From: Candidatus Thorarchaeota archaeon
GTDB lineage: Archaea; Asgardarchaeota; Thorarchaeia; Thorarchaeales; Thorarchaeaceae
Assembly (NCBI GenBank): GCA_048884785.1
Contig: JBHLQM010000031.1
Coordinates: 1-36,499, forward strand
DNA: 36,499 nt
Reading direction: 5' to 3'
Part shown: piece after piece, positions 15,005-36,499 of the stretch
Layout of the letters: each line of letters starts with the position of its first letter
Position numbering within the stretch: position 1 is the stretch's first letter
The notes under the pieces: model-generated
What the model saw: only the letters and a program-made list of their open reading frames with translations
Databases searched by the model: none
Told to the model about the DNA's origin: nothing
Made by a program: the position numbers and the translations under genes

Positions 15005-15009
15005 AGCCT

Positions 15010-15708
15010 CTATGCCTCCCTCATGGCCTGTACAAAATTCTCAAGGATTCCTAAACCGTCAACCGATCCGAGTACCAACCTGGACGCCCGTTCGGGATGG
15101 GGCATCATCCCGAGGATATTCCCTTTCTCATTTGTAATTCCAGCTATACTGTAAATAGCCCCGTTTGGATTGGCTGCCTCAATGGCTTCTCCTTCCTGAT
15201 TACAGTACCTGAAGGGTATTCTATGACCATGCTTGAGTCGTTCAAGATCTTCTTCTGTGCAGTAGTAATTCCCCTCCGCATGAGCGATTGGGAGTCGAAT
15301 CACTGCGCCTTCCATTCCATGAGTGAAAGCTGTATGGTGACCAGAAACTTTGACATAAACCCACTTGCATATGAAGTGAGCAGAAGCGTTCGGCAACAAA
15401 GCACCAGGTAGAAGACCTGATTCAGCAAGAATCTGAAATCCATTGCAAATGCCAAGGATTGGCTTTCCAGAGTCTGCCATTGCTCTGACACCATCAAGGA
15501 TGGATCCCACTGATGCAACAGCGCCAGCCCGAAGGTAGTCCCCATATGAAAAGCCACCGGGAATGACTACTCCTTTTGCGTTCTTCAATGCATCTGAACC
15601 TTTGCTACTTGGTACTAAGTATGGCTCTGCTCCTGGAATCAACTTAAGTGCCCTCACTACATCATTTTCATTATTTGTTCCAGGAAATCTGATTACCGCG
15701 ATTGTCAC
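15010..15708 (-). CDS. purQ: FGAM synthase glutaminase subunit
   Basis: FPGTN, PGGFSYGDYLRAGA, LGICNGFQIL, NPNG and GMMPHPER. Confidence 0.97.
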   Translation of the reverse strand: MTIAVIRFPGTNNENDVVRALKLIPGAEPYLVPSSKGSDALKNAKGVVIPGGFSYGDYLRAGAVASVGSILDGVRAMADSGKPILGICNGFQILAESGLLPGALLPNASAHFICKWVYVKVSGHHTAFTHGMEGAVIRLPIAHAEGNYYCTEEDLERLKHGHRIPFRYCNQEGEAIEAANPNGAIYSIAGITNEKGNILGMMPHPERASRLVLGSVDGLGILENFVQAMREA

Positions 15709-16682
15709 ATCTGCATCCTCATATGATGTTTCTCAGCAATTGGATTTGATAGAAGCTTGAGATTCATCAAGATTAACTGCTCCAAAATGCTGGATGTAAT
15801 TGGGGTGGAGATGCCAATTTGGAATACTTTGCCCATACGCACCTCGGCTACATCTTTGAATCCGAGTCGCAGCAAAGCCTTCTTGGTAACTTCCCCGGGA
15901 GGGTTCTTAATTCCATCCTTTGGCATTACAGCTACATAGACTATTTCCATCCTTTTTGCGACTTTATCTTGATCGACTTTATTGAGGGTTTTTAGAAGAA
16001 ATGCATATGCTTTGGCGATATCCCCCTCTCCTTCTCGAAATAGATCCTTATCGTATGACTGCTTTCTAGCATTCCATACTCTAATGGTGTCACCGGAGAT
16101 TTCGTCCGCAAGAAGAATGGATCCATCTGGAGTTTTTCCGAACTCTAGTTTGAAATCCACAAGGTTCAGTTTTGTCTGCATGAACAATTCTGAAAGATAA
16201 TAATTCACAGACAACGTGATTGATTTCAGGAAGGCAATGTCATCTTCTGATACAAGTCCTAATCCTATTGCAGCTCCTTCGCTTATTAGCGGATCATGCA
16301 ATATATCATCTTTGAGAAAGAATTCGACGAGAGGCGGTTGGATTTCCTCTCCCTTTTTCACGCCATATCTTCTGCAGAATGACCCTGCAGCTAGATTTCT
16401 GCAGACAACTTCTAAGGGAAGTATCTCAACTTTTCTGCATCGAATCTGAGGTCCTTCCAGTCGCTTGACAAAGTGTGTTTCTATTCCCTTTGAAGATAGG
16501 TATTTCATGAAATACTCTGTCAGATCGCATGTCAGGGCACCTTTTCCTGCAATCACCTTCTTCTTTCTACCATCACCAGCTGTAACTCGATCAGTGAACT
16601 CGATGATTATATTCTCTTCTGAGGTTTCATCGCTGAAGATTTTTTTCGCCTTTCCCTCATGTATCAATTCCATTTTTGACAC
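15705..16682 (-). CDS. purC-purS: Fused PurC (SAICAR synthetase) and C-terminal PurS
   Basis: HEGKAKK, PLEVVCRN.AAGS, LVDFKLEFG and ADEISGD. The last ~80 aa (VMPKDGIKNPPGE...LGF..V.EVRMGK.F...LLSNPIAE) match PurS. Confidence 0.93.
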   Translation of the reverse strand: MSKMELIHEGKAKKIFSDETSEENIIIEFTDRVTAGDGRKKKVIAGKGALTCDLTEYFMKYLSSKGIETHFVKRLEGPQIRCRKVEILPLEVVCRNLAAGSFCRRYGVKKGEEIQPPLVEFFLKDDILHDPLISEGAAIGLGLVSEDDIAFLKSITLSVNYYLSELFMQTKLNLVDFKLEFGKTPDGSILLADEISGDTIRVWNARKQSYDKDLFREGEGDIAKAYAFLLKTLNKVDQDKVAKRMEIVYVAVMPKDGIKNPPGEVTKKALLRLGFKDVAEVRMGKVFQIGISTPITSSILEQLILMNLKLLSNPIAEKHHMRMQM

Positions 16683-16695
16683 CTCTGGTTATTAG

Positions 16696-17769
16696 TTAGG
16701 TTGTTATCTCTCCTAGCATGCCTTCTTCTATTGCGTTACCAATATCAATCATACACAGGTCTAGGGGAGATTGAATGAGTTGTTTCATCTTAAGCGTAAG
16801 CCTTCGCATTTCCGGGCTTGTTGGCCCAACACAGGGAGCTCCTGGTACTCTCGGACTAAGGTCAAAAACAACAAATTCAGAATCCTCGGTCATTGCACCC
16901 TGCAATGAGAATAGCCCAATCATCTTCGGTGGAAAGTGTTCTTTTATGCCATTCAAAAGACGTTCAGCAGCATCATACACAAGCGGCTTTTTGCTCTCTC
17001 GCATTGTTATTCCAAAATGACCAATTTCCTCATTCATTGGAATCAGGTTCAATTTCAGCTGGTCTTGAGCTGGAAGATTCAGGAGACCCGTCAAGTTCGT
17101 TTGAATTCTATCATCAAATCCAACGAAATCCAGCTCACCATATGTATCAGACATTCCATATGCCTGAAAATTGGAATTGAATCTTGGAGCCACAATGAAC
17201 TCCTCAATTGTGGCAGTCTTTAGATCATCTCGACCAATTGCTCCTTTTTCAATCAACGATTCTGCGATGTTGTGGAAGTCTTCAGGAGTATTTGCATAGA
17301 AAAATGCCCTTTCAAGAGGATTATCCTTTTGCTGGACTTTTACGATTGCCAGTCTATCGATATTATTTGGCGTGAAAGCTTCAGGGATTCTGATGCCTGA
17401 TTCCTTCAGTAGCCAATACTGGTCTCTCGGAACGCCTCTCTCTTCGACTCTTAGGATGTTTCTGTTTCCATAGATTGGTATTCTGAAGTGCTTCTCAATA
17501 TTCTCGTAGCCAACATAAACACTGAAAGATCTGTTAGGAATCCAAATAGCTCCGAGTTCGGCAAGCTTCTCTTGAATTTCGTCCGAGATTATCTGTTTAA
17601 AATCATCCAGCACAATAATCTCATCATACAGATGCTTGTTGTAGTGAGTATATAGCTTCTCTCTCCCTTTCTGGCATACTACAACTGTAGGAAACCCAAA
17701 TGACCTGGCAGACATGCCAATCTCTTCTGCACTATGAGATCCAATGGTTCCAATCGTTGGTTTTCTCAT
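16696..17769 (-). CDS. purP: PurP-family ATP-grasp (formate-dependent FAICAR synthetase-like), paralog 2
   Basis: IGTIGSHSA, IPNRSFSVYVG, IYGNR, LERAFF and EIGH....RES. Confidence 0.88.
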   Translation of the reverse strand: MRKPTIGTIGSHSAEEIGMSARSFGFPTVVVCQKGREKLYTHYNKHLYDEIIVLDDFKQIISDEIQEKLAELGAIWIPNRSFSVYVGYENIEKHFRIPIYGNRNILRVEERGVPRDQYWLLKESGIRIPEAFTPNNIDRLAIVKVQQKDNPLERAFFYANTPEDFHNIAESLIEKGAIGRDDLKTATIEEFIVAPRFNSNFQAYGMSDTYGELDFVGFDDRIQTNLTGLLNLPAQDQLKLNLIPMNEEIGHFGITMRESKKPLVYDAAERLLNGIKEHFPPKMIGLFSLQGAMTEDSEFVVFDLSPRVPGAPCVGPTSPEMRRLTLKMKQLIQSPLDLCMIDIGNAIEEGMLGEITT

Positions 17770-17853
17770 AGAATCTCCTCGCAGTAATGCACCTCTCTTC
17801 CATCAATACTTGTGAGGTCGTGAAACAGTTTGTAAGTCTTGTTATTCGCGGTT

Positions 17854-18807
17854 CTATTGCAATGCCTCACTCAACCTATCCTCCTCAAGCAGTTCTCTTA
17901 TTTCAAGCGCAACTCGTCTCCCCATCCACATTGGTTCATTGAATTGAAGATAGGAGTATGGGGAAGAGGGGATCCATACATTTGTTCCAGCGACAATTCT
18001 ACCGCTAAACTCGAACACATGTATATTCTGATGCCTATCGATTATTGTTTCAATGCAAAAGGGTCCAGGGATAATCCTGCCTGTTGACTTTCGAAAGCTT
18101 TCTATAAAATCATGACCCATTTTGTGATACTTCAGCAAAAGTGATTCGCGGAGCACCAAGGGAAGATTACCTACAACGACAAAAGATGGCCGATCATCGA
18201 ATCGAAGGTTTGCATCTGCATCAGTTTCGTACCTGATATCAGCTCCGAATATCTCAAGACGGTTGCGGGCTATGGAATTGAAATAGGTAACAAATACCTT
18301 TGTCCCAACAATAAACTCCTGAATCGAGTACTGCTTATCTCTTGGAACCTTATCGTTGAATTCTGCCATATTAGCGGCTATGAAGTAGCCTTCCCCACCA
18401 GCTGCACCATAGGTCTTTACAATGACCGGTCTATCAATCTCTTCTGCTGATGAGAATTCATGAGGAACCCTCAGTCCAGCATCAGTGATTAGTTTTGTTT
18501 TGAGCTCTCTATCTTCTTCCCATTTCAATAGCTCAATGCTCCCAAACATTGGAATTCTGGATTCAATCAGTTTTTTTGCACCAATATATGCAACGAATGA
18601 GCCATGGGGAATCCATACAATGTCATCCAGCTGCAGATTTAGTATATCCGAAAAGGAATCAACTTCTATTATTGAAGATTCCAGCCCATAGCTTCTATAG
18701 AAATCAGTTCTGTCTGGAGTTGAAACAAGAATGGTTTCGAATCCTTCTTTCTTTGCCCCTGATAGAATGTTCAGAGCACTATGGCTTGCAATGGTTCCAA
18801 TCTTCAT
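17854..18807 (-). CDS. purP: PurP-family formate-phosphoribosylaminoimidazolecarboxamide ligase, paralog 1
   Basis: IASHSALNIL.GAKKEGF.T, IPHGSFVAY, GAAGGEGYF, GNLPLVLRESLL, GPFCIE and FEFSGRIVAGTN. Confidence 0.92.
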   Translation of the reverse strand: MKIGTIASHSALNILSGAKKEGFETILVSTPDRTDFYRSYGLESSIIEVDSFSDILNLQLDDIVWIPHGSFVAYIGAKKLIESRIPMFGSIELLKWEEDRELKTKLITDAGLRVPHEFSSAEEIDRPVIVKTYGAAGGEGYFIAANMAEFNDKVPRDKQYSIQEFIVGTKVFVTYFNSIARNRLEIFGADIRYETDADANLRFDDRPSFVVVGNLPLVLRESLLLKYHKMGHDFIESFRKSTGRIIPGPFCIETIIDRHQNIHVFEFSGRIVAGTNVWIPSSPYSYLQFNEPMWMGRRVALEIRELLEEDRLSEALQ

Positions 18808-20201
18808 CTGATTGACCTCTCATAATCCCGGCAATTCTCTGAATCCCCATTTTCCTCGATAGATTGCCTGATTCTTCTCGCAAATTCTGTCGGGTATTCG
18901 CCATCAAGGCAGGCGAAACAGAGATCCTTGAGGCCAATGGCATTTTCAAGCCCATTTTTGTCTTGGTAGATGAGTGCATCTGCTTGAATGTATTCCGCAA
19001 TTCCGTCAACTGATGTGTCTGAAGCAATCAATTCCTTATCAGTCGCGATGTCAATTCCGTAGTAGCATGCATGAATCTGAGGGGGGCAAGTCACTGCAAA
19101 GAAAACCTTGTTTGCACCATTTTTCTTGAGGTAGGCCACAATCATCTTTCCCGTTGTGCCTCTCACTATTGAGTCATCCACAACCAGAATATTCTTTCCT
19201 CTTATCTTGCCTTGAAGATAGATGTATTTGTTCTTCGCCATTAAGTCACGGTCTTTCTGAGTGTTCGCAATGAAGGTCCGACCAAGATACCGATTCTTCA
19301 AAATGATTTCACGCATTGGCACATCTAGGTCTTCTGCCAATGCCTGAGCAGCAGGGCGACTGGTGTCAGGAACTGGAACCACATAGTCTGGTGTTTCTAG
19401 ATTCATCTTCTTGAAGATTCGAGCAAGGGCTCTTCCCAGTCTGAATCGAGTGTCATAAACCAGCTGATTCTCAATAGTCGCTGCAGGGTGTGCAAAATAT
19501 ACGTATTCGAAAAAGCAGTGATTGTGTGTTTCATTCTGAGATATTGAATGAGATTCCATACTGAGTCCGGGGCCAAATATCACTAGCTCGCCAGGATAGA
19601 CATCTCTTTCAAGATTTAAACCCGCCATTTCAACAACTGTACTCTCAGATGCGACAACTGTAAGGTTCTCAGATCGGCCGAATACAAGAGGTTTGAATCC
19701 TCGAGGATCCCGATATGCAAACATTCTGCCTTCATGTAAACCAACCAAACTGTATGCGCCATCCACCTCTCTATCCAAAGCCTTGAATGCCTCAATCAAG
19801 TCCTGATTGCTTTTTGAGAGATGATGAGCAAGCCTATCAGCTATGAATTCCGAATCACATTCATAGCCTTCAGAAGTGAATTTGGTCATGTTTGTGATAT
19901 TTCCGTTATGAGTCAGTGCAACCTCATCCACGTTAAATGGGCCCACAAATTTCTCCAAATCAGCTTCTGATCCAACTCTTCTTCCGGATGTCGGATACCG
20001 AGTGCTTCCAATAATCAGACAACTTCTTTCGTCTGGTATATCCAGCAAGGAAGGATTTCCAATTACCTTTCTTGCCAAATAACCTTCGTCTGTTGACCAG
20101 AGGATTCCTGAAGCATCTTGTCCTCTATGAGTTAGCAAAAGCAATAGATCTCTAGAGGCTGGGAGGGAAAAGCTCCCCAGAATTCCGATAACCCCACACA
20201 T
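18804..20201 (-). CDS. purF: Amidophosphoribosyltransferase
   Basis: N-terminal MCGVIG nucleophile, HRGQD, HNGNI, CFFEYVYFA, VDDSIVRGTT, YYGID and CFAC Fe-S ligands. Confidence 0.97.
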   Translation of the reverse strand: MCGVIGILGSFSLPASRDLLLLLTHRGQDASGILWSTDEGYLARKVIGNPSLLDIPDERSCLIIGSTRYPTSGRRVGSEADLEKFVGPFNVDEVALTHNGNITNMTKFTSEGYECDSEFIADRLAHHLSKSNQDLIEAFKALDREVDGAYSLVGLHEGRMFAYRDPRGFKPLVFGRSENLTVVASESTVVEMAGLNLERDVYPGELVIFGPGLSMESHSISQNETHNHCFFEYVYFAHPAATIENQLVYDTRFRLGRALARIFKKMNLETPDYVVPVPDTSRPAAQALAEDLDVPMREIILKNRYLGRTFIANTQKDRDLMAKNKYIYLQGKIRGKNILVVDDSIVRGTTGKMIVAYLKKNGANKVFFAVTCPPQIHACYYGIDIATDKELIASDTSVDGIAEYIQADALIYQDKNGLENAIGLKDLCFACLDGEYPTEFARRIRQSIEENGDSENCRDYERSIR

Positions 20202-20202
20202 C

Positions 20203-20814
20203 TTAATTATCCTCCTTGATGACGACTTTCCTGTCAGTCACATTCAGTCTTCCTTCAAGATACAGTCTTACGGATTCAACTAGGATTTTGTGTTCTTCAG
20301 CAAGAATTCTATCGGCAAGAGATTCTGCAGTATCATTTTCCATTACAGGAACAACTCTCTGAAGGATAATTGGTCCTCCATCCATATCGTGATTAACAAA
20401 ATGCGTTGTGCATCCTGAAAATCTTACTCCGTATTCAATTGCCTGCTTCTGAGCCTCGGTTCCTTTGAATGCTGGCAAGAGAGATGGATGAACATTGATT
20501 ATCCTGTTTTCGTATTCAGAGAGGAAGACTTCTGATAGGATTCTCATATAGCCTGCAAGAATAACGAGGTCGATGCCATTTTCTATCAGTATCTCAAGAA
20601 CGCGTTTATCGTGCTCTTCCCTAGTTGGGAACTCTTTCTTTGTTACAATCTCAGTCTTGATACCTGCCCTCTTCGCACGTTCTATGGCTAGAGCATCTTT
20701 CTTGTTGCTAATGACAATCTTGATTTCTCCACCAAGTTGTCCTTTTTGGCACGCATCGATTAGTGCTTGAAGGTTTGTGCCCCTGCCGCTAACTAATACA
20801 CCCACCCGGCTCAT
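20203..20814 (-). CDS. purN: Phosphoribosylglycinamide formyltransferase (10-formyl-THF dependent)
   Basis: SGRGTNLQA, LAGYMRIL, INVHPSLLPAFKG and GCTTHFV...DGGPII. Confidence 0.97.
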   Translation of the reverse strand: MSRVGVLVSGRGTNLQALIDACQKGQLGGEIKIVISNKKDALAIERAKRAGIKTEIVTKKEFPTREEHDKRVLEILIENGIDLVILAGYMRILSEVFLSEYENRIINVHPSLLPAFKGTEAQKQAIEYGVRFSGCTTHFVNHDMDGGPIILQRVVPVMENDTAESLADRILAEEHKILVESVRLYLEGRLNVTDRKVVIKEDN

Positions 20815-24179: not shown

Positions 24180-25235
24180 TTATGGTTTGATTTCGGCCAA
24201 TATATCTCTTAATCTTGGTTCAGCTAGAATTGCATGTTGCAGTTTGCACAGAAGTTTAGTAACCTCAGCATATACTGCAGCTCTTGCAGGATCCGTGGAT
24301 GCCTCGGCGCTTTGAAGAGCCTCTTCAGACTGTTGGTTAATCCTCTTTATTAGTCGCTTTTCTAGTTCAGGACCGCCCCATCCAAAACCATCGAATGCAT
24401 TATGAGCCTCAGATATTTTATCCTCTGGATTTGGTAGCTTATCTGTAAGCACCCCCTCGAGTCCTTGGAAGTATTTGTGCACGGCTCGATTCACTCTCTC
24501 TGATTCTGATGCGTCCAGATAGTTCTCCTGAGCTCTTTTCAAAGAAAGGTCCTGCAGTAAACGTGCACCTGGGGCTTCGGTGAGGAGACCTTTGACAACC
24601 TTCGCCATGATTCGAGATGGAATCTCAATGACGTCCCCGATATACTGGGACTCAGACTGATACCTATGGATTTCCCTTATTACCTCAAGCCAGAATGTTG
24701 GCAAAAGCACATGACATCGCTGAGAATATTGCTCAATCAGGCGCTGTGTTTGGCCTATTATCCCCCACTCATCATTTTCCATCCCGACTTTTCGATAGGG
24801 TTCTTTGGGGACTTGAAGCTCGCCTTCAGCAATTGCAACAATTCGAGAATCGCCTGCTTGCGCCTGTTGAGTGTCAGATGTTCTTGTACGTCCTTCACCC
24901 TCAAGGAGAGAAAGAATTTCTTGAGCAGGTGTTGCTCTGGTCTCGGCCTTCTTGGCTTGTTCTGAGAGCTTTGGCAAAATGCTCTCTATCTGGGTGAGCC
25001 TTTTCACAATCAGGCTCAGGATGTTTGTTGTGGATTCCGGGATGCCCTCAGCCGTTGTAGCTTCCTCTATCCAAGACCTTGTCTTGATGAGCCCTTGAGT
25101 AAGAGAGTCAATACGGTCGGGATCGACATAACCCTCGACCTCTGAGCTGATTAGGAAATGTACTAGTGTTGAATTCAAAGCTACTATTAGGAGAAGCCTA
25201 TCAACGATATCTTCTGTCTTGAAGGGCTCTGTCAC
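24180..25235 (-). CDS. Hypothetical alpha-helical protein, third gene of the tubulin-like operon
   Basis: Long ORF with no recognisable motif. Likely start is GTG 25235, preceded by GAGGT overlapping the upstream TGA (the track start 25265 overlaps the upstream gene). Confidence 0.8.
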   Translation of the reverse strand: MTEPFKTEDIVDRLLLIVALNSTLVHFLISSEVEGYVDPDRIDSLTQGLIKTRSWIEEATTAEGIPESTTNILSLIVKRLTQIESILPKLSEQAKKAETRATPAQEILSLLEGEGRTRTSDTQQAQAGDSRIVAIAEGELQVPKEPYRKVGMENDEWGIIGQTQRLIEQYSQRCHVLLPTFWLEVIREIHRYQSESQYIGDVIEIPSRIMAKVVKGLLTEAPGARLLQDLSLKRAQENYLDASESERVNRAVHKYFQGLEGVLTDKLPNPEDKISEAHNAFDGFGWGGPELEKRLIKRINQQSEEALQSAEASTDPARAAVYAEVTKLLCKLQHAILAEPRLRDILAEIKP

Positions 25236-25239
25236 GACC

Positions 25240-26634
25240 TCACATCCCTGGCTGTATTTCTCCACCTGCGCCTGGTGTCATGTAGTAGCTGAAGAGTTCT
25301 CTGAAATCGGAAATAGCATCAACAAGCTCTTTTCTTTGTACTCCTTTCGAACGCATGAACCAGCTTTGCTTTAGCGGTGACGCGCCACTGTGAAGATTGA
25401 CAAGCTGAGTAGCTTCATTGATGATCTGGACCAGTTCGGGTATCTTAGGTAGACCCAGCAATACCAGAAGATTCACTTTTGGATCCTTTGTGAGATATTG
25501 AACGTAGCATGGCGTGATAGCTGCACCCGGAGCAATGAACTTGTCAAGTGCCTCTTTCAAATGCATGCCATATTCTGCCTTGCTGATATGTCGCGGTCCA
25601 GAAAGCACATAATATACTGATTCCGCATTTGGTTCATCTCCAACATCTGCATAGGACGATTCACGTACCGCATAGTCTATCATTGCTTTAAGCTGACGCG
25701 GCATGCTCCCTGCATCTGGAATTAGTCCCACATCTGTATAAAGTGCAGGAACAACAATTGGATCCAATTTCCTTGCATAATCAGCAAGGTCAGTGGTTGG
25801 AAAAACATCCTTGTGTGGCTCATAAACTCCTGGTGAGAGCATAGCTTCCACGACATCCAGTGCGAGAGGATTAACGAGTTCAACAAAAGCCTGTTCTGTT
25901 CTCGTTTCAAGCTCGCCTGCTTCATCAAGCGTTGAGGGGACCATCTTCTCTATTGAATCAATATCAGCAATATCGACTGACAATTCTCGTTGAAGATAGT
26001 CTACACTATCGGCACGTCTCGATTGCAGGATTCTCTTGAGCATGGTTCTGTTGCTTAGCAGAATCGTGAGGTCGGCTCCTCTCTCTTGGAGCTGTGCTCT
26101 TAGAAGCCTTGAAACCGCCCATATGGAGTTCAAAGCTTCGCTTGATTGCCCCTCGAAGGGGAGGATCCCAATCACATAGACAAAAATGCGGCGTCCTTCC
26201 TCCTCTTGGAACCTTTGCTTCAGAAGCTCGATGATTGCTGGAGTGCCACCGCATCCAGTACCACCACCAAGGCTTGTAAAAATGCAGAATCCTGAGACTC
26301 CCTCAAACCCGAGGTTGCTCAATTGGTCGAATATGATGTCTTTGGACTCGATAACAGCATTGTATCCATCCATGAACCTACCACCAACACCGATTTCACT
26401 TGCCCCATAGAGGAGTGTATGCTCCTTGGGGATTTCGTATTTTGAGCGCACCTTTGTCAGGTCTGCCCTGTCGGTGTTCATCAAGAGATAGCCTCTTACT
26501 CTTGAGGGCAACTTCTTGTCTATGCTTGCCTTCAAATAGGAACCCACTATATTTGACCCACACTCTCCAACGCCTATGGCAAAGACTTCTGCAGCCTTTG
26601 TTTCTTCTTCCCCTAATCTTGGTGGTCCACTCAT
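25240..26634 (-). CDS. Divergent tubulin/FtsZ-superfamily GTPase (CetZ/tubulin-like)
   Basis: IGVGECGSNI (T1), NTDRADL, GVGG (T3), signature SLGGGTGCGG (T4), ILPFEGQ (T5), LLSN (T6), TTDLADYARKLDP (T7), and C-terminal VNLLVLLG. ATG follows GGAGGAG. Confidence 0.92.
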   Translation of the reverse strand: MSGPPRLGEEETKAAEVFAIGVGECGSNIVGSYLKASIDKKLPSRVRGYLLMNTDRADLTKVRSKYEIPKEHTLLYGASEIGVGGRFMDGYNAVIESKDIIFDQLSNLGFEGVSGFCIFTSLGGGTGCGGTPAIIELLKQRFQEEEGRRIFVYVIGILPFEGQSSEALNSIWAVSRLLRAQLQERGADLTILLSNRTMLKRILQSRRADSVDYLQRELSVDIADIDSIEKMVPSTLDEAGELETRTEQAFVELVNPLALDVVEAMLSPGVYEPHKDVFPTTDLADYARKLDPIVVPALYTDVGLIPDAGSMPRQLKAMIDYAVRESSYADVGDEPNAESVYYVLSGPRHISKAEYGMHLKEALDKFIAPGAAITPCYVQYLTKDPKVNLLVLLGLPKIPELVQIINEATQLVNLHSGASPLKQSWFMRSKGVQRKELVDAISDFRELFSYYMTPGAGGEIQPGM

Positions 26635-26652
26635 CTGATTCTCCTCCTGTGA

Positions 26653-29343
26653 TTATCCTCGTTTGCCGACCATTGACTGAGCAATCTCTCTGATTGCCCA
26701 TGTCAAATATGAGCTTATGTCTTCTCTACTATAAGTATCCTTGATTTTTCTGATTGCATCATCAAGGAATTTCTCTCGCTCATCTACTCCGGCAGCAGGA
26801 CTGAAACCGGTCATGAACATCTTCAAGGACTTATGCCAGTCGTCCATTTTCTCTGCCTTTTCAATCCATTCTTTTCTCATCTCTCTTAATTCATTATACG
26901 CCTCTAGAGCCTTGTCAAGTTGTTGTGCTGATGTCAGGTCCTTCTCTAGAGTGCCCATCTTCGATAAGTCATAGATGAGTTTACTGAAGTCCTTTGGATG
27001 CTTTCCAAAAACCCGTTCAATGGTTGAGTAGTATTGGCTTTTTTCACGTATCTCATTGTAATAATTCTCTGTATCCTTTGATGCAATGCTTTTGATAACT
27101 CCAAGCATTTCTTCTTGGACATTTGCCAAGGTTAGGCACACCTCGAGAGGTTCAGTGATATACTTGGATTCCTCCTGCATCTTGCTGGGAACTTGCTCTA
27201 GGAGCGATTTCAGACGCTTTACGAAGTCATCCATACCTTGATCCTCAAAAAGTGAAACCGCACCAAGGATTTGCCGATATGCATCGTCGCCGCGCTCTCT
27301 CACTCTATCTTGAATATCCTTTGAAGTAGTCAAGCCGGCCAGATGGTCAAATGAATCAGCAGCATCTTCCAACTCGACTGGAGGTTTGTCCATAACGGAT
27401 TTCAGAAGCTTTAGCTCCTTCTCCAGCGGCACTCCAATTGAGGCTGCTTTTGAGAATGAGGTGTGCAGATTCTTTGCTTCCTTTTGAAGTGACTCGATTA
27501 CCTTGCCAGTGATTTTCTTTTCATAGAGTTCTATCATTTTTCTTGCGATAGCTGGAAGGCTAAACACAGTTTCTGCAGCAACGCCAATGCTATTCAATTC
27601 TGCAATTGCATCTTGGACTTCCTTGGGTATTTCTGCTCCAGCTCCCATGAGTTTAGCTGCTGCTAGTCGGATTTTAACGCCCAACCTATATCGAAGATTT
27701 TCAAGCGCTTCTTTTGCCTTCGCAAGTATTGTTTCCTTAATTGTACGCATCTCAGAGCGAATCTCTGCGAAATCATCCATCTGCTTTATTCTATCAGCAC
27801 CTTCATCCAAATCGACAACGATGGGCATGAAGATTTCAGCGTAAGCTGGTTTTATTGTTTGAAGGTCTTCAATGATTGCATCAATCTCTTGTTTGCATGC
27901 TTCTCGAAATGTTGCAACTCCGCTTCCAACGGCAGTCCGGAGGCTCTCAAGTGATTGCAACAAATATACAATTCCTCCGCCCTCAAGTTCTTCCATTTTA
28001 GGTGCTTTCTTGCTCAGCTGCGCATAGTCAAGAACCCTGTCTGCTGAAGTGGCAAGTTCATTGAATCGTGCTAGGAAATCCTTAATGTGTTGCTTTACAA
28101 CTCTCTTATGCTCTTCATCCAATGCATTTGCTTTCACGTATACTTCGATCATCCCGTCAAGTTCGTTCTTCTCCAGATGGCGGCGGGATTGCTTCACAAA
28201 GTCCCTTATCGAACTAATATCGGTGATCCCAGTATCACTGGCGGCGTCTCCTGCCTTTTCTACATCATCAATTAACTCTTCGACCTTTCCCTTAAGAGAA
28301 ATCTTCACCTGTCCTTCCCATTCTACCATCTTCTGATATGATGACAACAAGCTGGGTACTTCTTGATTCTCGACAACAAGTGATGGAGCCTGAGGTATAA
28401 CGTCAGAAGTGGTTGGAATACCATTCTCGACGAATTTGGTCGTTGTTTCGTGCTTCATGTTGATGATTCTATCCTTCAACATATTTGCAACTTGAAGCTT
28501 AGATGCCTGCATTTGTGATTCGAGGCTAATTAGAGTTGTCAAATTCTCTGCACTGGATGCATCCCTTGCCAAAACTCGTAGTTTCTGACTGAAATCCATA
28601 GGAAGCTCAAGACCGAGTCTAACAGATGTTTCCACCCATGCCTGCAGGGATTCAATATCACTCATCAAAGAAACACCAAGCATGCGGCCAACTTCGCCTC
28701 TTCTTCCGTCAAGATACACCTTCTCTGCCTGAAGCTTATCATTGATTGAAATCAAATCTGCCGCAGAGAATCCTGATACATCTTCGTTTGAAACAGAGGT
28801 TGATACTTCTCCTCTATCTATCGTGACATGCCTTTCAAAAGTTTCAATGGTTCTTTTGTTTTCATCAAGAAGGTCTTTGACGGTCCTTGATAACTCATTC
28901 AGGAGCCCAGAGGACTTCTTAGAAAAAACATCTCCGAACTGGAACAGCTGTTCAAAATCTGACATGTCTCCTGCACCAATTGAAGGGAACGATACCGAGC
29001 CTAGTGCCTTTGCCTCTGCAGGCTTGAGTTCTTGCAGTTTAGGAACAGACGCCATTATGTCCCTATGTTCTCGTCTAAACAGCTCTGCGAAATCCCTTAC
29101 AATTCTCATAAACATGTCTTCAAGATCGTTGTTGATTTTCTCCAGCTGCGATTGAATCTTCCTCTTTTTCAAAACGCCAGATGCTCCAAGCTCATTCTCA
29201 GCCTTGGTAAATGTGGCAAAAACCTCATAGAGTTGGCGAACCTGATGGGATGTTTGCTCCTCAAGTCCTGGATTCAGGTTAACCAACATTCCTTTCATCT
29301 CTGAGAGGCGGTCGAGCTCGCGTCTCCACTTTTTGCTGTCCAA
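26653..29343 (-). CDS. Large alpha-helical/coiled-coil repeat protein (896 aa), first gene of the tubulin-like operon
   Basis: Rich in E/K/L/A/S with heptad-like helices and no Walker motifs. TTG start follows a strong GGAGGT SD. Ends 18 nt before the tubulin-like ATG. Confidence 0.88.
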   Translation of the reverse strand: MDSKKWRRELDRLSEMKGMLVNLNPGLEEQTSHQVRQLYEVFATFTKAENELGASGVLKKRKIQSQLEKINNDLEDMFMRIVRDFAELFRREHRDIMASVPKLQELKPAEAKALGSVSFPSIGAGDMSDFEQLFQFGDVFSKKSSGLLNELSRTVKDLLDENKRTIETFERHVTIDRGEVSTSVSNEDVSGFSAADLISINDKLQAEKVYLDGRRGEVGRMLGVSLMSDIESLQAWVETSVRLGLELPMDFSQKLRVLARDASSAENLTTLISLESQMQASKLQVANMLKDRIINMKHETTTKFVENGIPTTSDVIPQAPSLVVENQEVPSLLSSYQKMVEWEGQVKISLKGKVEELIDDVEKAGDAASDTGITDISSIRDFVKQSRRHLEKNELDGMIEVYVKANALDEEHKRVVKQHIKDFLARFNELATSADRVLDYAQLSKKAPKMEELEGGGIVYLLQSLESLRTAVGSGVATFREACKQEIDAIIEDLQTIKPAYAEIFMPIVVDLDEGADRIKQMDDFAEIRSEMRTIKETILAKAKEALENLRYRLGVKIRLAAAKLMGAGAEIPKEVQDAIAELNSIGVAAETVFSLPAIARKMIELYEKKITGKVIESLQKEAKNLHTSFSKAASIGVPLEKELKLLKSVMDKPPVELEDAADSFDHLAGLTTSKDIQDRVRERGDDAYRQILGAVSLFEDQGMDDFVKRLKSLLEQVPSKMQEESKYITEPLEVCLTLANVQEEMLGVIKSIASKDTENYYNEIREKSQYYSTIERVFGKHPKDFSKLIYDLSKMGTLEKDLTSAQQLDKALEAYNELREMRKEWIEKAEKMDDWHKSLKMFMTGFSPAAGVDEREKFLDDAIRKIKDTYSREDISSYLTWAIREIAQSMVGKRG

Positions 29344-29568
29344 GAGAGTACCTCCTTAATCGGCGATAAATGAGGGCGACTACATCTTAAGTGTGTTCTG
29401 TGTTTGTGTCCCTCTGATTTATGCGAATTTGGTTTCAACTGGTAATGAAATTTGATATTACATTGGAGAAAAACATTACTTTGCGCACGTGAGTAAAATC
29501 TTAAAACAGTCAATTTTTGAAACGAGGGTAATCTAATATTCGCTTATGCAAGCGAAGGGAGTAGAAAA
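29344..29568. promoter_or_regulatory. AT-rich divergent intergenic region (probable back-to-back promoters)
   Basis: 225 bp between divergent genes, containing TATA-like tracts (AAAATCTTAAAA, TAATCTAATATT). SD-like motifs precede both flanking starts. Confidence 0.45.
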
Positions 29569-31713
29569 GTGTCAATCTCTTCGGGAGGTACAGCGGAATC
29601 ACTACGTCTTCAGCATAGAATAGAAGCTGAATTTGGGAGCGACGTGGTATATATCAATCATGACGAGAAATATGTCTATGCCGCTTGTACCGACTTGAAA
29701 GTTAGGGTTTGGTCTAAGGATGAATGGCAGCTAATTGCCACCTTAGGTGATACTACCTCTCCTCCTCTTGCAGTTCATATTGATGATGAACATGTCTACG
29801 CAACATGTGAGAAACGAGTCTATGTCTGGACCAAGAACACATGGGGGATGATTGGCTGGTTTGAACTGACATACACAGCTGTAACTTCTACACTTCGAGG
29901 CGAGTATCTGTATGTTGGTGCAAAAGAAGGGCGTCTAGTATCAATAAAGAAAGACACTCATGATACTTCCAGTTGGCAGTTGTTCAAATCTGATATCACA
30001 CGTATTTGGGCTGATGGAGAGATAATCTGTACATCAACAAACAAGGATGAATCAGTGGTTTGGAAAATCGAGAAAAACACCGCTCCCTCAGAGATTGCGC
30101 GTCTTGACAAGAAGGACAAGGGTGCCCACATTACTGGCAACAATGCCTACATATTATCCGGATTGAATACATCTGAAATTAAAATGTGGGATAGAGTTGA
30201 TTGGTCTCGTATTAGGACACTGCAACCGGCAGGAAACAACGGTCTGGTATCTCTCTGGTCCAATAGTATATACCTAATATCTGCATCAAATACCTCCAGT
30301 ATTAGTATCTGGGATTTGAGAAAGGGAACTACCATCGGCACATTCAAAGTGAATGGATTCAAGATATTGCAGGTTCGTGCTGATAGCAAGTATGTCTTTC
30401 TGGCTACTACTGCTGGCATTAAGGTTCTTTCCCTGTCTATTGGAGGGCAGCAGCTCGATCTGAATGCAGATGAGAATTCTCTCTACGGAACTCAGGTATT
30501 GAGAACCTCTCCTTACGATGTGCTCGAGGTAGTTCTAGAGTTGCAGAAAAAGGGGGATCAGTTTCTTGATGAAGGAGAATATCATGAGGCTGTTTCTGAA
30601 TTCGAGCACGCTCTTCAACTATTGATTGATAACAACCAAGCACTTCTGGAAGTACCAAAAGAAAGGGAAAAAATCACAACTGAAATTAATGATCGACTGG
30701 GCCAATCCTTGCTGCGAGCCAAGATAGTAGAAATGCAGGAAATTGTTGATGAAATTGAATCCATCACGGATGAACTTGATCGTGAGGGGCGAACGAGTCG
30801 AGACGAAGAGTCTCTAGATAAGGTCTGGACTATGGCATCCCGTGCGATAAAGGAGAGTAGGGTTCTGGCTGAGGCTCAAGGTGGACACATACTTAGCTAT
30901 CAGCTTTCTCATGAATCTGACATTCTGGATTCCAGTCTTTCCAAGGCGAAGGAAAAGGTTGAGAAGTATAAAGAGAAAATTACCTATGCCCTAACGCTTA
31001 CTCAAAACATCCGAAGTGAGTGGCGGTGGTTAGAGCGAAAACGAACCTCTCTTGAAGACCGACTAGCGTTTTTGGAATCCGCAGTGAGGAAGCTTGAAAC
31101 ACGAATAAAGGAATCCTCTGCAGATGATGAAGTTCGGAATATTCTTGTCACAGCATTAAATGAGTACACACAGCTTAGAGATCAGATATCTCGGATTCTG
31201 GATGCAAGCACAAATGACTCGAAGGATGTTCTCCTGTCAAAGGATGAGGCAATCGCGGCTATTGAAGGGTTGCTTAATGTACTTCCAAAGCGTAGAAAAT
31301 CAATCGAAAAGATTAGTGATGATGCTGAAAGACATAGAGAGATGAATCAGTTAATAGAAGCACTTCAACAGGCGGTTGAAGCAGCTGAGCAACATAAGTT
31401 GAAAGACGAGGCTCTCAAGATCAACGCAGAAATGGCAACAATTCTTTTGAAAGATGAGGCCGAGGAACCTTCGATTACGTCAGAAACACCAAGGCTTGAA
31501 ACTGAATCTGAGCCACCCAAGGAGGAACCCCAAACGTCCAAAGAGGAACCTGTACTACCAAAGGTGGAGAAAGATGAGCAATCAGAAGAAAAACCAGCAA
31601 AGGTCCCAAAAAAGAAAGAGAGCAGCGCAAAGACTCCAAAACAGCCTTCGAAGAAGAAAACTAAACGAAAGAGATCCACAACGAAGAAATCTCCTCGCAA
31701 AAAGTCAAATTGA
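29569..31713 (+). CDS. WD40 beta-propeller + MIT/TPR-like helical bundle + coiled-coil + low-complexity Lys-rich tail
   Basis: Repeated WD-type blades (KVRVWS, RVYVWT, EIKMWD, SISIWD) in aa ~20-290. Then GDQFLDEGEYHEAVSEFEHAL, a long coiled-coil, a P/E-rich linker and KKKTKRKRSTTKKSPRKKSN. Confidence 0.88.
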   Translation: MSISSGGTAESLRLQHRIEAEFGSDVVYINHDEKYVYAACTDLKVRVWSKDEWQLIATLGDTTSPPLAVHIDDEHVYATCEKRVYVWTKNTWGMIGWFELTYTAVTSTLRGEYLYVGAKEGRLVSIKKDTHDTSSWQLFKSDITRIWADGEIICTSTNKDESVVWKIEKNTAPSEIARLDKKDKGAHITGNNAYILSGLNTSEIKMWDRVDWSRIRTLQPAGNNGLVSLWSNSIYLISASNTSSISIWDLRKGTTIGTFKVNGFKILQVRADSKYVFLATTAGIKVLSLSIGGQQLDLNADENSLYGTQVLRTSPYDVLEVVLELQKKGDQFLDEGEYHEAVSEFEHALQLLIDNNQALLEVPKEREKITTEINDRLGQSLLRAKIVEMQEIVDEIESITDELDREGRTSRDEESLDKVWTMASRAIKESRVLAEAQGGHILSYQLSHESDILDSSLSKAKEKVEKYKEKITYALTLTQNIRSEWRWLERKRTSLEDRLAFLESAVRKLETRIKESSADDEVRNILVTALNEYTQLRDQISRILDASTNDSKDVLLSKDEAIAAIEGLLNVLPKRRKSIEKISDDAERHREMNQLIEALQQAVEAAEQHKLKDEALKINAEMATILLKDEAEEPSITSETPRLETESEPPKEEPQTSKEEPVLPKVEKDEQSEEKPAKVPKKKESSAKTPKQPSKKKTKRKRSTTKKSPRKKSN

Positions 31714-31714
31714 T

Positions 31715-32356
31715 CTAGCTTCCAGCTGAAAAGGCATTGTCAAAGGACAATTCAGAATCTGACAGCAAATCATATTCTTCCCTTAGGTCATCAATCCAGT
31801 CGTCAGAAAGACTCTCCAGAATCGGGTCGATTGCAAAAGCCTGTTCTGCGGCACCCAATGCTGCTCCAACATCTCCGAGGACGTAATTGCATGCTGCTAA
31901 GTTGTACCATGTAATAGATGAATTTGGATTTAGCTGGATTGCGTTGTGAAATGCCTCTCGAGCTTCTACCCAATTCTCAAATGTCATGTATGCAGTTCCG
32001 AGCAAGTACCAGTCATTTTGGTTTCTAGGATTGAGCTTTAGGGACTGCTGCAATGCTCTTATCCCTTCAGATTCCTCGTTCAGAAGGAAGTGTAGATATG
32101 CCTTATCTGCCCATATTCTGGAAGCTTTAGGATCCAACGTCAGAATAGAGTTCATTGCTTCCAATGCCTTCTTTGGCCTCTTTAACTCAAGATTGCAGAT
32201 GATCACCCTGTCTAATACCGATCTGTTTTTGGGATCAATTTCTGCCGCTTTTTCCAGCGCTTCGATTGCTTCGTTGAACTTGGATTTGTTCATCAGCGTC
32301 GATGCGAGGTCAAGGATTTGTCCTGTCTCAGGACTGTTATTGGTATTCGTCAACAC
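31715..32356 (-). CDS. Tetratricopeptide repeat protein (~5 TPRs, acidic tail)
   Basis: EAIEALEKAAEIDP, ALQQSLKLNP, WYLLGTAY...AFHNAIQLNP and WYNLA. Confidence 0.92.
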   Translation of the reverse strand: MLTNTNNSPETGQILDLASTLMNKSKFNEAIEALEKAAEIDPKNRSVLDRVIICNLELKRPKKALEAMNSILTLDPKASRIWADKAYLHFLLNEESEGIRALQQSLKLNPRNQNDWYLLGTAYMTFENWVEAREAFHNAIQLNPNSSITWYNLAACNYVLGDVGAALGAAEQAFAIDPILESLSDDWIDDLREEYDLLSDSELSFDNAFSAGS

Positions 32357-33253: not shown

Positions 33254-33300
33254 TTTCAGATTCATCTGAAAAAGAGGGAATAGACTTCTCTCTATCCCCT
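33254..33300 (-). terminator. Hairpin(s) between convergent genes; probable terminator of the hydrogenase operon
   Basis: Minus strand reads AGGGGATAGA-GAGAAG-TCTATTCCCT (10-bp stem, one G-U) followed by CTTTTT, starting at the hydA stop. A second perfect inverted repeat, TTTCAGAT-TC-ATCTGAAA, lies at 33254-33271. Confidence 0.6.
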
Positions 33301-34591
33301 ACTTGTACTCAACTTCTACAAGATGCGCACTACAGCTTATACACGGATCATATGATCTGGCAATCATTTCAAATTGGAGTTCAATACCATCGGTTCTACC
33401 AGCAGAGAGTAATTCCTCCCCACTCTTCCGGATGAAGGCTTCTATATCATCTAGAAACATCGCAGTAGGAGTAATGTAGTCCGCGGCGGTAATCCGACCT
33501 TCTTTGATTTCATAGTGGTGAATCAGCGTGCCTCGAGGTGCTTCAACAGCCCCTGTCCCGATTCCGCTAGTCCTTTTTGGTTTAGGAATCTTCGGCTCGT
33601 CAGACTTCAATAGCTCATCAATCGTGTGGATTATTCCCTCTAGTGAGTATACTTGCTCAACCGCTTGAGCGAAGTTATTGTATAGCGGATTGCGATTCCA
33701 TCTTTCGTTGAAGAGATTTTCTAAAGCGGTTTTTGCTTCTCCCCTCAATCTGTCACCCAATAGAAGAACACGAGCCAAAGCCCCAACGGAGAAAGGTTGT
33801 CCTTTGTATGAGCTTCGTTTTGCGAAACTGTGACTGACAACCCGTTCCTTAATTGCCGTATTATATTTCTCAGCTGGATATTCCATTCCATCTGATGTAA
33901 TGATTGAATCCCCAAAATAGTCGTATCCGTCATGCGGTGGCTTGCAGCAAAGAAATTGAGTTTCTCTTTCCATATGACTCGGAATTTCCAGTGTGGAAAG
34001 AATATCGACCGTCTTCATTGCGAATGGAAGAAGTTCCTTCGCTTCCTGCTGCACTTCCTTTAGGATATTTGCAGTTGGTAGCTTTCCAAAACCTCCAAGA
34101 ACAGGGTTTTCTCCGTGGATCATCCTTCCTCCAATAAGCTTCATTATCTTGTTGCCAAAGGCTTTCATCTGAAGCGCTTTCTGCACAACGTCTCCATACT
34201 CTGCAGCCATTGCTACTGCATTATCATAACCAAAGAAGTCAGGCAGCGCAAGGAAATACAGGTGAAGACTATGGCTCTCAATCATCTCACCATGATGCAT
34301 TAGATGTCTATACTCATCAGTTGTCTTTGGAATTGTCACATCTAGGGCCTTCTCCAATCCTCGGAGGCTAGCATACTTGTGTGAAAGGTTGCAGATTGCA
34401 CAAATTCTGGGAACAAGACTAAGTGCTTCTTCAGGAGTCTTTCCAACTACCAGTGTTTCAAAGAGTCGTGGTCCTTCCAGAATCTGAACCTCAACGTTTG
34501 TGATTCTGTTTCCAGAAATCTCTACCTTTATTCCGCCATTACCTTCAACTCTTGCGAGAGGCTTAATTATTATCATTTCATTCTTGGTCAT
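33299..34591 (-). CDS. hydA: [NiFe] hydrogenase large subunit, group 3b (sulfhydrogenase alpha)
   Basis: RVEG, L1 motif PRICAIC, EAPRGTLIHHY, and L2 motif YDPCISCSAH followed by a short cleavable tail (LVEVEYK). Confidence 0.95.
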   Translation of the reverse strand: MTKNEMIIIKPLARVEGNGGIKVEISGNRITNVEVQILEGPRLFETLVVGKTPEEALSLVPRICAICNLSHKYASLRGLEKALDVTIPKTTDEYRHLMHHGEMIESHSLHLYFLALPDFFGYDNAVAMAAEYGDVVQKALQMKAFGNKIMKLIGGRMIHGENPVLGGFGKLPTANILKEVQQEAKELLPFAMKTVDILSTLEIPSHMERETQFLCCKPPHDGYDYFGDSIITSDGMEYPAEKYNTAIKERVVSHSFAKRSSYKGQPFSVGALARVLLLGDRLRGEAKTALENLFNERWNRNPLYNNFAQAVEQVYSLEGIIHTIDELLKSDEPKIPKPKRTSGIGTGAVEAPRGTLIHHYEIKEGRITAADYITPTAMFLDDIEAFIRKSGEELLSAGRTDGIELQFEMIARSYDPCISCSAHLVEVEYK

Positions 34592-35394
34592 GATTTCACC
34601 TCCGCTGTACTAGTCAATCCCTGAATGTGTTCCAGAATCTTATGCCCTCCAAAATTCCTAATCCTGCGCATTATGTCATCAAATGGAATGCCGAAACTCT
34701 CGAGCAACTTGAAATGCTCAGAGAAGTTTCCATCCGTATTTGGTCCCCAACAACCAACGCATGATAAGCCATGACTCGGGCAGGCTGAATCACAGCCGCC
34801 TTTTGTTAATGGTCCAAGGCAAAATCTGCTATCAAGCAAGAGGCAGCGATTCTCATTCAATTTGCATTCATGACAGACTGGATGTCTGGATTCATCAGGT
34901 TCTGCACCATGGATGAGCCGTCCAATCAAGGCCATAGCTTGATGCTTGCTAATGGGGCAACCAGGAAGATAATAGTCGACTGTAACAACTTGGTCTATGG
35001 GGGACGCTTCAACTGGCTCGGTAATGAACTCAACATTTCCATACACTTGTTTGAGCCTTTTATTGAAACTTCCATCACCCACAAACATTGATTGGGGTCC
35101 ACCTGAAACGGCACAGTTTCCTATGGCTACTACAACTTGTGTGCGTTTTCGTATTTCCTTTAGATGCTCTCTCTCTTCCTCGGTACTTACGCTTCCTTCG
35201 ACAAAGGCCACATCTAGATTCTCTTCCACTGGATTGGAAGATGCCATTACGAATGATTTGATATCTACTGCGTTGAATAGATTCAACAACTGCTCCTCTG
35301 TGTGTATGATTAGAAGCTGATCCCCTGCGCATCCAGTGAATCCATAAACACCTACTTTAGGCTTGGTGATTTGCTTGGCTAGTCTGTTAGGCAT
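34588..35394 (-). CDS. hydD: [NiFe] hydrogenase small subunit (sulfhydrogenase delta)
   Basis: TGCAGDQL, VEGSV, IGNCAVSGG, LPGCP, CHEC...C, CLGP..GGC...CP and CVGCWG. Confidence 0.93.
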   Translation of the reverse strand: MPNRLAKQITKPKVGVYGFTGCAGDQLLIIHTEEQLLNLFNAVDIKSFVMASSNPVEENLDVAFVEGSVSTEEEREHLKEIRKRTQVVVAIGNCAVSGGPQSMFVGDGSFNKRLKQVYGNVEFITEPVEASPIDQVVTVDYYLPGCPISKHQAMALIGRLIHGAEPDESRHPVCHECKLNENRCLLLDSRFCLGPLTKGGCDSACPSHGLSCVGCWGPNTDGNFSEHFKLLESFGIPFDDIMRRIRNFGGHKILEHIQGLTSTAEVKS

Positions 35395-35395
35395 T

Positions 35396-36247
35396 TTAGA
35401 TCAACTCCCTGAAATGCAATGTATCCCAATATGTGAAAACCGGGCCATCCATACAAGTGTAGATATGATCCAGTGCGCAATGGCCACATTTGCCTATCCC
35501 ACACCTCATTCTTCGCTCCAAGGTCATCTGAATCATGTTCTTTGGAATTTTTAGTTTTAGAAGCTCTTGAATGACATATTTATACATCACAGGAGGGCCA
35601 CAGACTACTGCAGTTGTTGTAGTAGGGTCGATCTTTGGAAGTTGCTTGAATAACTTGGTTACTACACCGACATTCTCCGGCCAGGTTCCCGATGGGTCTT
35701 TGTCGACTGTATAGAAGCAATCAACATCAGTCCGCTCCTTTATCTGGAAGAACTCATTCTTAAAGAGAAATTCATCAGGATTTCTTGAACCATATAGGAA
35801 ATACAACTCATCGAATTGATCCCGGTTGTCCAGTACATAATAGAGAATTGAACGGAGAGGAATGACTCCTAGTCCTCCAGCCACAATGATAATGTCTCGT
35901 TCGACCATTGGCTCAATCTTGAAACCATTTCCATATGGTCCTCTGACATAAATGACATCATTGTCTTTCTTCTTGTAGAGGGCTTCTGTCACTTTCCCTA
36001 CTCTTCTAATACCCATCTCAAGAATACCTGGTCTACTAGGAGTTGACGAGATGGAAAAAGGAGCTTCACCTACACCCGGTATTGACAACATGGCAAATTG
36101 ACCAGGCTTGTATTTGAAGGACATCGCTCGTTCCATGTCAATGAAACGTATCTGGAAGAATCGGTGATCCTTTATGAGATCGTATTGCCGCACAATTCTT
36201 GCAGGTTGTGGTTGGAAGGGATTCTCTGATTCATTGATAAGCGTCAT
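35396..36247 (-). CDS. hydG: Sulfhydrogenase gamma subunit (FAD/NAD(P) binding, 2Fe-2S)
   Basis: PGQF, GEAPFSISS, RGPYGNGF, AGGLG, CGPPVM and ERRMRCGIGKCGHC...CMDGPVF. ATG 36247 overlaps the upstream TAA. Confidence 0.93.
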   Translation of the reverse strand: MTLINESENPFQPQPARIVRQYDLIKDHRFFQIRFIDMERAMSFKYKPGQFAMLSIPGVGEAPFSISSTPSRPGILEMGIRRVGKVTEALYKKKDNDVIYVRGPYGNGFKIEPMVERDIIIVAGGLGVIPLRSILYYVLDNRDQFDELYFLYGSRNPDEFLFKNEFFQIKERTDVDCFYTVDKDPSGTWPENVGVVTKLFKQLPKIDPTTTTAVVCGPPVMYKYVIQELLKLKIPKNMIQMTLERRMRCGIGKCGHCALDHIYTCMDGPVFTYWDTLHFRELI

Positions 36248-36499
36248 TACTTCTTCACCTCGCAACTTGTTAATGCCTCAGAGACCGTTATAACATTGAT
36301 ATCAACCGGGCATGTTCCGACACAACGTCCACAACCTACACATCCAGGTTTTCCATATTCATGGGCAAAAGCTTTCAACTTGTGAGTATACCAGAGCTTC
36401 AGTCTATCAGCTCTTGAACCTCTGAAATTATGCCCTCCTGCAACTAGACTATAGTCAACGAACATACAGCTATCCCAAGATCTTTCCCTTCGCCCTGAT
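36247..36499 (-). CDS. hydB: Sulfhydrogenase beta subunit (4Fe-4S), partial C-terminus
   Basis: RSWDSC, AGGHNFR, and CVGCGRCVGTCPVDI. The frame is open to the window edge. Confidence 0.9.
   Translation of the reverse strand, partial: SGRRERSWDSCMFVDYSLVAGGHNFRGSRADRLKLWYTHKLKAFAHEYGKPGCVGCGRCVGTCPVDINVITVSEALTSCEVKK

Follow-up and report, generated by a model that had tools for sequence, protein, structure and literature searches.

The WD40 gene and its genomic neighborhood

The window (the whole 36,499-nt stretch of DNA analyzed here) carries on its forward strand, at positions 29569 to 31713, a gene encoding a 714-aa protein with a WD40 propeller, four three-helix bundles, and a disordered tail. 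The open reading frame is real, as originally predicted: it begins with GTG, homologs start at the equivalent position, and 216 homologs at E ≤ 0.001 rule out a shadow-frame artifact. The homologs listed are 45 to 66% identical, and nearly all of the named ones among them are Thorarchaeota. No transmembrane segment was found in the protein (maximum hydropathy over 19 aa, 1.36), and full-text searches found no description of the family in the literature. Homolog counts out of 115 refer throughout to the 115-sequence alignment that was also used for the AlphaFold2 (AF2) model.

Head to head with the WD40 gene lies a three-gene operon on the reverse strand (24180 to 29343). Its first gene (26653 to 29343) encodes an 896-aa helical rod protein, the second (25240 to 26634) a tubulin/FtsZ-family GTPase whose best PDB sequence matches are CetZ-like (4b46, 3zid) and which is found in nine Asgard families, and the third (24180 to 25265) a 361-aa helical protein without a Pfam match. 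The GTPase in the window probably belongs to Asg.Tub, a published Asgard group of CetZ/tubulin-like proteins with coiled-coil genes on its flanks (PMC9871819). The WD40 protein evolves much faster than this GTPase (mean inter-genus identity, 47% versus 83%). At its 3′ end, the WD40 gene is separated by a 1-nt gap from a convergent gene for a 213-aa tetratricopeptide repeat (TPR) protein (31715 to 32356, reverse strand), and the two stop codons fall within −8 to +86 nt of each other in all 34 loci compared.

Conservation of the head-to-head layout had been named beforehand as a check, and it held: in 64 of 65 loci both 5′ ends face each other on one contig (62 within 450 nt and two with an insertion of 2.4 to 2.6 kb), the last pair being split across contig ends. 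However, the whole block is conserved, metabolic genes included: an FMN enzyme gene converges on a CoA ligase gene, which is followed in the same orientation by the 361-aa, GTPase, and rod genes, then by the divergent WD40 gene and the convergent TPR gene. The CoA ligase and FMN enzyme neighbors are syntenic in nearly all loci with the operon block. Past the TPR gene, synteny varies more, and since the head-to-head arrangement is by comparison near universal, selection may still act on the pairing.

The divergent intergenic region (29344 to 29568, 225 nt) contains two separate promoter-like elements. On the rod-gene side, a conserved BRE/TATA-like motif (29386 to 29400, reverse strand) precedes a GGAGG ribosome site (29351 to 29355); in the forward direction, the WD40 gene has a candidate TATA-like element at about 29491 to 29506, and in relatives it also has one of its own. 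The two genes had been proposed to be coregulated, which is not supported, given the separate elements for each direction, a rod promoter motif and ribosome site that are the same with or without the WD40 gene, and the two genomes that tolerate the long insertion. A sigma-70 promoter and terminator scan, a method not suited to archaea, returned nothing.

Several features of these loci deserve mention in their own right. The rod/GTPase/361-aa operon is more conserved than the WD40 gene and probably the more interesting unit; in one family, several genomes carry its GTPase twice. The 2.4- to 2.6-kb insertion of G060 and G062 (L045:8900-11350 and L046:4335-6900) interrupts the promoter of the rod gene at its TATA-like element. 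It brings in a gene for a TATA-binding protein (TBP; Pfam PF00352, with E = 2e-62 in G060), and the TBP part is common to both inserts at 82% DNA identity. The WD40 promoter region of G061 occurs on two contigs with different upstream sequence (L059:1-360, L060:656-870), which suggests that some strain variants have an insertion at this site and others do not. In about 40 genomes, whether or not they have the WD40 gene, the last two residues of the TPR neighbor are a conserved A/G-S/G pair that follows a variable acidic linker and may serve as a C-terminal recognition motif. At its C terminus, the 361-aa protein has a helix that is strongly conserved (24180 to 24225, reverse strand; consensus EPRLREILAQMKP) and shows MIM1-like spacing. 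We considered this helix as a MIM1-type ligand of the first helical bundle of the WD40 protein and set it aside: it lacks the Arg, and lineages that have no WD40 gene retain it, g15 among them and, for the most part, the outgroup family.

A WD40 propeller followed by a predicted rod of helical bundles

The predicted beta-propeller is borne out. It spans aa 14 to 291 (29608 to 30441), and the AF2 model (pLDDT of >90 over most of the domain) arranges 28 strands as seven four-stranded blades with velcro closure. The best structural match is WDR61 (3ow8_A; Z = 32.8, rmsd 1.9, 271 aligned residues), within a field of many WD40 structures at Z = 29 to 33 in which no family is preferred; likewise, WD40_Prp19 (E = 5e-11) and many other WD40 profiles match, all under their family-specific cutoffs. 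Seven-bladed WD40 adaptors such as WDR61, beta-TrCP (1p22), KIF21A (7klj), beta′-COP (2ynp), and a bacterial protein (5yzv) share the propeller fold (Z = 30 to 33, rmsd ∼2 Å, 265 to 285 residues aligned) and conserved top-face loops. They differ from our protein in sequence (just 10 to 16% identity, with no match standing out) and in architecture, as it has neither an F-box nor a second propeller and its propeller is followed by a family-specific bundle rod. Conservation is focused on blades 1 to 4, on both faces, with scores of 0.82 to 0.85 for blades 2 and 3 versus 0.56 to 0.60 for blades 6 and 7. Conserved residues in the top-face loops of blades 1 to 4 include D42, T62, P66, C80, E81, Y102, K140, D142, and K159; in WD40 domains, these loops bind short motifs. 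Two other genomes, G013 and G001, contain large expansions of WD40-repeat proteins (31 and 21 matches) that look like its initial blades and from which the domain may have been drawn.

Downstream of the propeller, the AF2 model places ten main helices between residues 315 and 628, ahead of the disordered tail. Folded alone, this half (pLDDT 88.7) forms four three-helix bundles, and the orientation of the propeller relative to the arm is uncertain in the full model (pTM 0.47). Bundle 1 (aa 312 to 385; 30502 to 30723) leads into the spectrin-like bundles 2 and 3 (aa 386 to 548; 30724 to 31212), and bundle 4 (aa 558 to 628; 31240 to 31452) is attached through a flexible linker. Unbroken helices at residues 363 to 406 (44 residues) and 441 to 490 (50 residues) cross between bundles 1 to 3. 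What had been taken for a coiled coil is therefore helical as predicted but modeled as three more three-helix bundles: with bundles 1 to 3 joined spectrin-style by continuous helices, the structure differs both from a simple coiled coil and from an alpha-solenoid.

The longest structural alignments of the helical half are to spectrin and plakin repeats, although a Z of ∼10 is common among helical bundles: alpha-spectrin (1u4q_B) aligns over 234 residues (Z = 10.6, rmsd 8.1) and plectin (5j1h_A) over 153 (Z = 10.4, rmsd 3.8). Like these rods and beta2-spectrin (6m3p), the model has tandem three-helix bundles with continuous linking helices, helix C running into the next helix A across bundles 1 to 3, and the alignments of 234 to 235 residues (Z = 10.6 and 9.2) cover model residues 1 to 246. 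Unlike them, it has short bundles (∼80 aa, versus ∼106 aa for a spectrin repeat), and these superpositions come with an rmsd of 8 to 9 Å and 7 to 9% identity; a Spectrin_7 match (E = 0.01) falls under the cutoff. Bundle-to-bundle profile comparisons detected no internal repeat, bundles 2 to 4 did not match the Vps4 MIT domain, and Foldseek gave no match to the helical part at E ≤ 0.001; an atlas search by shape reached a best TM, by query, of 0.45. No catalytic signature was recognized in the bundles. Conserved polar/aromatic patches continue along the rod (e.g., W420, K428-E429-S430, E484-W485-x-W487, R490, and R498).

Bundle 1 has an MIT shape and a TPR-type sequence signature

Bundle 1 is the most conserved helical part of the protein (conservation score, 0.77; 30 positions at ≥90%). 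The original prediction singled out a peptide segment at about 30511 to 30730 as resembling a three-helix MIT domain or a single TPR. The segment exists, at 30541 to 30726 (aa 325 to 386) rather than from 30511, and both the three-helix fold and the MIT shape are borne out, but membership in the MIT family is not, and TPR scores better. In structure, MIT, TPR, and spectrin domains are tied at Z ∼10: the archaeal Vps4 MIT domain 2w2u_B superimposes at Z = 10.3 (rmsd 1.9, 72 of 74 residues aligned), 2v6x_A at 10.1, and the katanin p60 MIT domain 5lb7_B at 9.9, while the TPR 4it4_A reaches 10.6. Together with MITD1 (4a5x), these MIT domains have the size and topology of bundle 1 (Z = 9.8 to 10.3, rmsd 1.6 to 2.4 Å).

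Sequence comparisons favor TPR. Pfam TPR_2 is matched in 36 of 58 homologs and MIT in 20, both under cutoff. The MIT model (PF04212) reaches 15 to 16.3 bits against a curated cutoff of 30, which the genome's real Vps4 MIT domain itself misses at 28.8 bits, and the match ends at position 55 of a 66-position model (positions 6 to 55). PDB profile matches are led by TPRs, with the Vps4 MIT domain at E = 0.25 to 0.31. In profile-profile comparison, bundle 1 reaches a probability of 42 to 63% to two repeats of the neighboring TPR protein, repeats 1 and 4, versus 3.7% to the Thorarchaeal Vps4 MIT domain; other TPR repeats score as low as MIT, and the MIT alignment is shallow. Outside the family, in a search of 1.8 billion representatives, only multi-repeat proteins match, over the hairpin.

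Conserved positions agree with this assignment. The Asp of Vps4-MIT helix 1 (A-x-x-x-D-x-x-G), present at the matching position of the Thorarchaeal Vps4 MIT consensus, occurs in none of the 115 homologs, all of which have Y, L, F, I, V, or M at position 333. By contrast, the register of the TPR motif (PF07719/PF00515; FKBP-type TPR domains) is kept across the family (G/A8, Y/L/F12, G15, F/Y17, A/S20, Y/F24, and A27). Differences from canonical TPRs are also clear: bundle 1 is a single hairpin in place of a tandem 34-aa array, has I or V at position 32 and so lacks the Pro32 turn, and scores 17.2 bits against a curated cutoff of 27. Relative to MIT proteins, bundle 1 lacks the helix-3 signature, its helix 3 extends into the next bundle, and the WD40 protein has neither an AAA domain nor an ESCRT neighborhood. 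Our reading is that bundle 1 is a TPR-derived hairpin with a third helix, MIT-shaped without belonging to the MIT family. The genome does encode two Snf7 (ESCRT-III) proteins and Vps4, on contigs other than that of the WD40 gene; the MIT-Vps4 ATPase and one Snf7 gene are divergent neighbors (L062:490-2484, G000 contig C3), and the second Snf7 gene is on contig C6.

The basic tail is not conserved

A Lys/Arg-rich disordered tail had also been predicted, and the C terminus (31453 to 31710) does end this way, but the basic stretch covers only the last 37 aa (aa 678 to 714; 31600 to 31710), with 18 K/R and 1 D/E, and follows an acidic stretch of 49 residues (aa 629 to 677) with 17 D/E and 6 K/R. 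Similar polybasic ends occur in 7 of the 1,558 long open frames of this genome. As a conserved functional feature the tail fails: the median tail in the family is 14 aa, several genera end in acidic residues, and a net charge of at least +8 is found in just 16 of 115 homologs, so the basic tail cannot carry the core function of the family. A lineage-specific electrostatic role is possible.

Probable late gain and repeated loss in one Asgard family

Using a profile of the helical part, we found the WD40 protein, as a single copy, in 57 of 76 genomes of one Thorarchaeia family and in 0 of 224 other Asgard genomes. The GTPase ranges more widely, through that family and 48 genomes of eight others in which the helical profile finds nothing; the two proteins thus do not co-occur across the GTPase range (one family versus nine). 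Even within the family, the WD40 gene is cleanly missing from an intact locus in six genomes (lineages g9, g15, and G052; 88 to 99% complete), where only 213 to 244 nt separate the rod gene from the TPR gene upstream of it, with no WD40 gene between; the queries used found no match elsewhere in those six genomes. In a tree of the rod, GTPase, and 361-aa proteins, g15 is sister to the rest (support, 86), and g9 and G052 are nested among carriers, a placement that implies either a single gain followed by two or more losses or else three losses.

Loss of the gene leaves its neighbors intact. Invariant sites of the tubulin and rod proteins are not relaxed after loss (1/270 and 1/271; 5/178 and 1/180), and the TPR gene persists, its conserved sites and C-terminal motif included. 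No WD40 gene was seen relocated to another place than beside the operon. A required link to the filament is not supported, as the operon is intact and equally constrained without the WD40 gene, and since the operon is unchanged in such relatives, a cytoskeletal or ESCRT connection is unsupported.

Proposed role and alternatives

By fold class, the modeled WD40 protein is a real, previously undescribed adaptor of generic type, and the propeller-plus-helical layout suggested for it is borne out. On balance, and with modest confidence, we favor a soluble, family-specific, two-ended adaptor or spacer, the word adaptor reflecting its fold class. With the conserved loops of blades 1 to 4, the propeller would grip one partner by a surface or a short linear motif. 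Bundle 1, derived from a TPR, and the spectrin-like bundles 2 and 3 would form a semirigid arm, and the polar/aromatic patches of the arm, or bundle 4, could engage either another partner or another copy of the protein. The protein would thereby keep two components a set distance apart and would catalyze nothing. The best reading of its history is that the gene is late acquired, dispensable, and lineage specific: its arrival between the TPR gene and the rod operon probably postdates the deepest split of the family and was followed by two or more losses, and its position probably reflects a slowly rearranging block rather than membership in the tubulin-like system. Neither ESCRT-III nor the GTPase is a probable partner.

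Katanin p80 and LIS1-type WD40 proteins serve microtubule systems, and the gene could by analogy be a dispensable, late-added accessory of the rod/GTPase/helical-protein system that binds the filament or a partner. The near-universal head-to-head pairing and the absence of relocated copies are what such an accessory would show, and in loss lineage g9 the invariant sites of the 361-aa protein have changed a little more often (5 to 6 of 93, versus 0 to 5). But the g9 excess extends to the unrelated CoA ligase (9/193 in G021), constraint on tubulin and rod is unchanged after loss, promoter elements are separate and insertions between the genes tolerated, and eight other families, along with three lineages of this one, have the operon without the WD40 gene; we therefore consider this account possible but not likely. 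Complex prediction for the GTPase (aa 10 to 455) with the propeller and bundle 1 (aa 12 to 390) informs neither way (score, 0.00; mark, 0.32). A bolder version, in which a WD40-TPR/MIT-like-spectrin-like protein was recruited late in one Asgard family to regulate or tether the tubulin-like filament system, with bundle 1 as an independent TPR-to-MIT-like transition and the whole as an archaeal parallel to eukaryotic WD40 microtubule regulators, is a similarly speculative idea. An ESCRT adaptor, in which bundle 1 would be a functional MIT domain recruiting the MIM motifs of ESCRT-III tails, would suit the whole-domain superpositions, the weak Pfam MIT matches, and the Snf7 and Vps4 proteins of the genome, yet the TPR signature, the hydrophobic residue in place of the Asp, the truncated low-scoring Pfam match, and the location of the ESCRT genes on other contigs make this link, as originally drawn, the most improbable of those considered.

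A protocoatomer-like coat or tether subunit acting on membranes was also proposed. Protocoatomers are defined as propeller plus solenoid (PMC6141808), and, as far as that article relates it, a 2017 Asgard report placed the two on separate genes. Our protein has an N-terminal propeller and an all-helical region within one chain, beta′-COP and alpha-COP propellers are among its tied top structural matches (Z = 31.1 to 30.7), and a crude screen of the genome found no other clear propeller-plus-long-helical protein. A 2026 preprint (10.64898/2026.10.28.762692) groups structural cluster A0A3P7E7I7, which contains 34 Thorarchaeia sequences, with CORVET/HOPS-like propeller-solenoid proteins; our family, from the same archaeal class and with the same domain order, may or may not belong to it. 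However, the modeled helical half is a bundle rod with helices of 44 to 50 residues and no stacked hairpins, so the definition does not apply to it; solenoids superimpose at an rmsd of ∼30 Å (TM ≤ 0.24), and the HOPS match 8dit_C has an rmsd of 28.9. Generic WD40 proteins match the propeller at least as well, restriction to one family speaks against an ancestral coat, and the nearest proteins by language-model features, a lead only, are bacterial (Campylobacterota) WD40 proteins of ∼700 aa (0.91). We regard a coat role as improbable. Partnership with the TPR neighbor, the two proteins forming a two-component chaperone or assembly scaffold, could account for the close stop codons in 34 of 34 loci and for the resemblance of bundle 1 to the neighbor's repeats 1 and 4, but convergent genes are not cotranscribed and the TPR gene persists with its conserved sites and motif where the WD40 gene is absent, and we hold it to be very improbable.

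The adaptor favored here represents an uncharacterized combination of domains restricted to a single Asgard family. Gained recently and lost more than once, it is not a good candidate for a building block that eukaryotes inherited from an ancestor. It also urges caution, as Asgard propeller-plus-helix proteins can be misfiled as protocoatomers or MIT proteins by domain order or shape alone; here, what follows the propeller is a rod of bundles whose first unit derives from a TPR. Binding to the neighboring tubulin-like system, if it occurs, would make the protein an archaeal WD40 accessory of a filament from the tubulin family. Natural gain/loss pairs for comparison are offered by G037 versus G052, by g9, and by g15.

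Other genes in the window

Beyond the TPR gene, a reverse-strand region (33299 to 36265) encodes a NiFe hydrogenase large subunit (Pfam PF00374) and apparent small and gamma-type subunits, a flank not conserved beside the TPR gene in relatives. At the other end of the window are a DNA ligase gene (1852 to 3525) and a reverse-strand run of purine biosynthesis genes (8574 to 20814) comprising guaA, purD, a purE-purM fusion, purL, purQ, a purC-purS fusion, purF, and purN, along with two DUF1246/1297 PurP-like genes.
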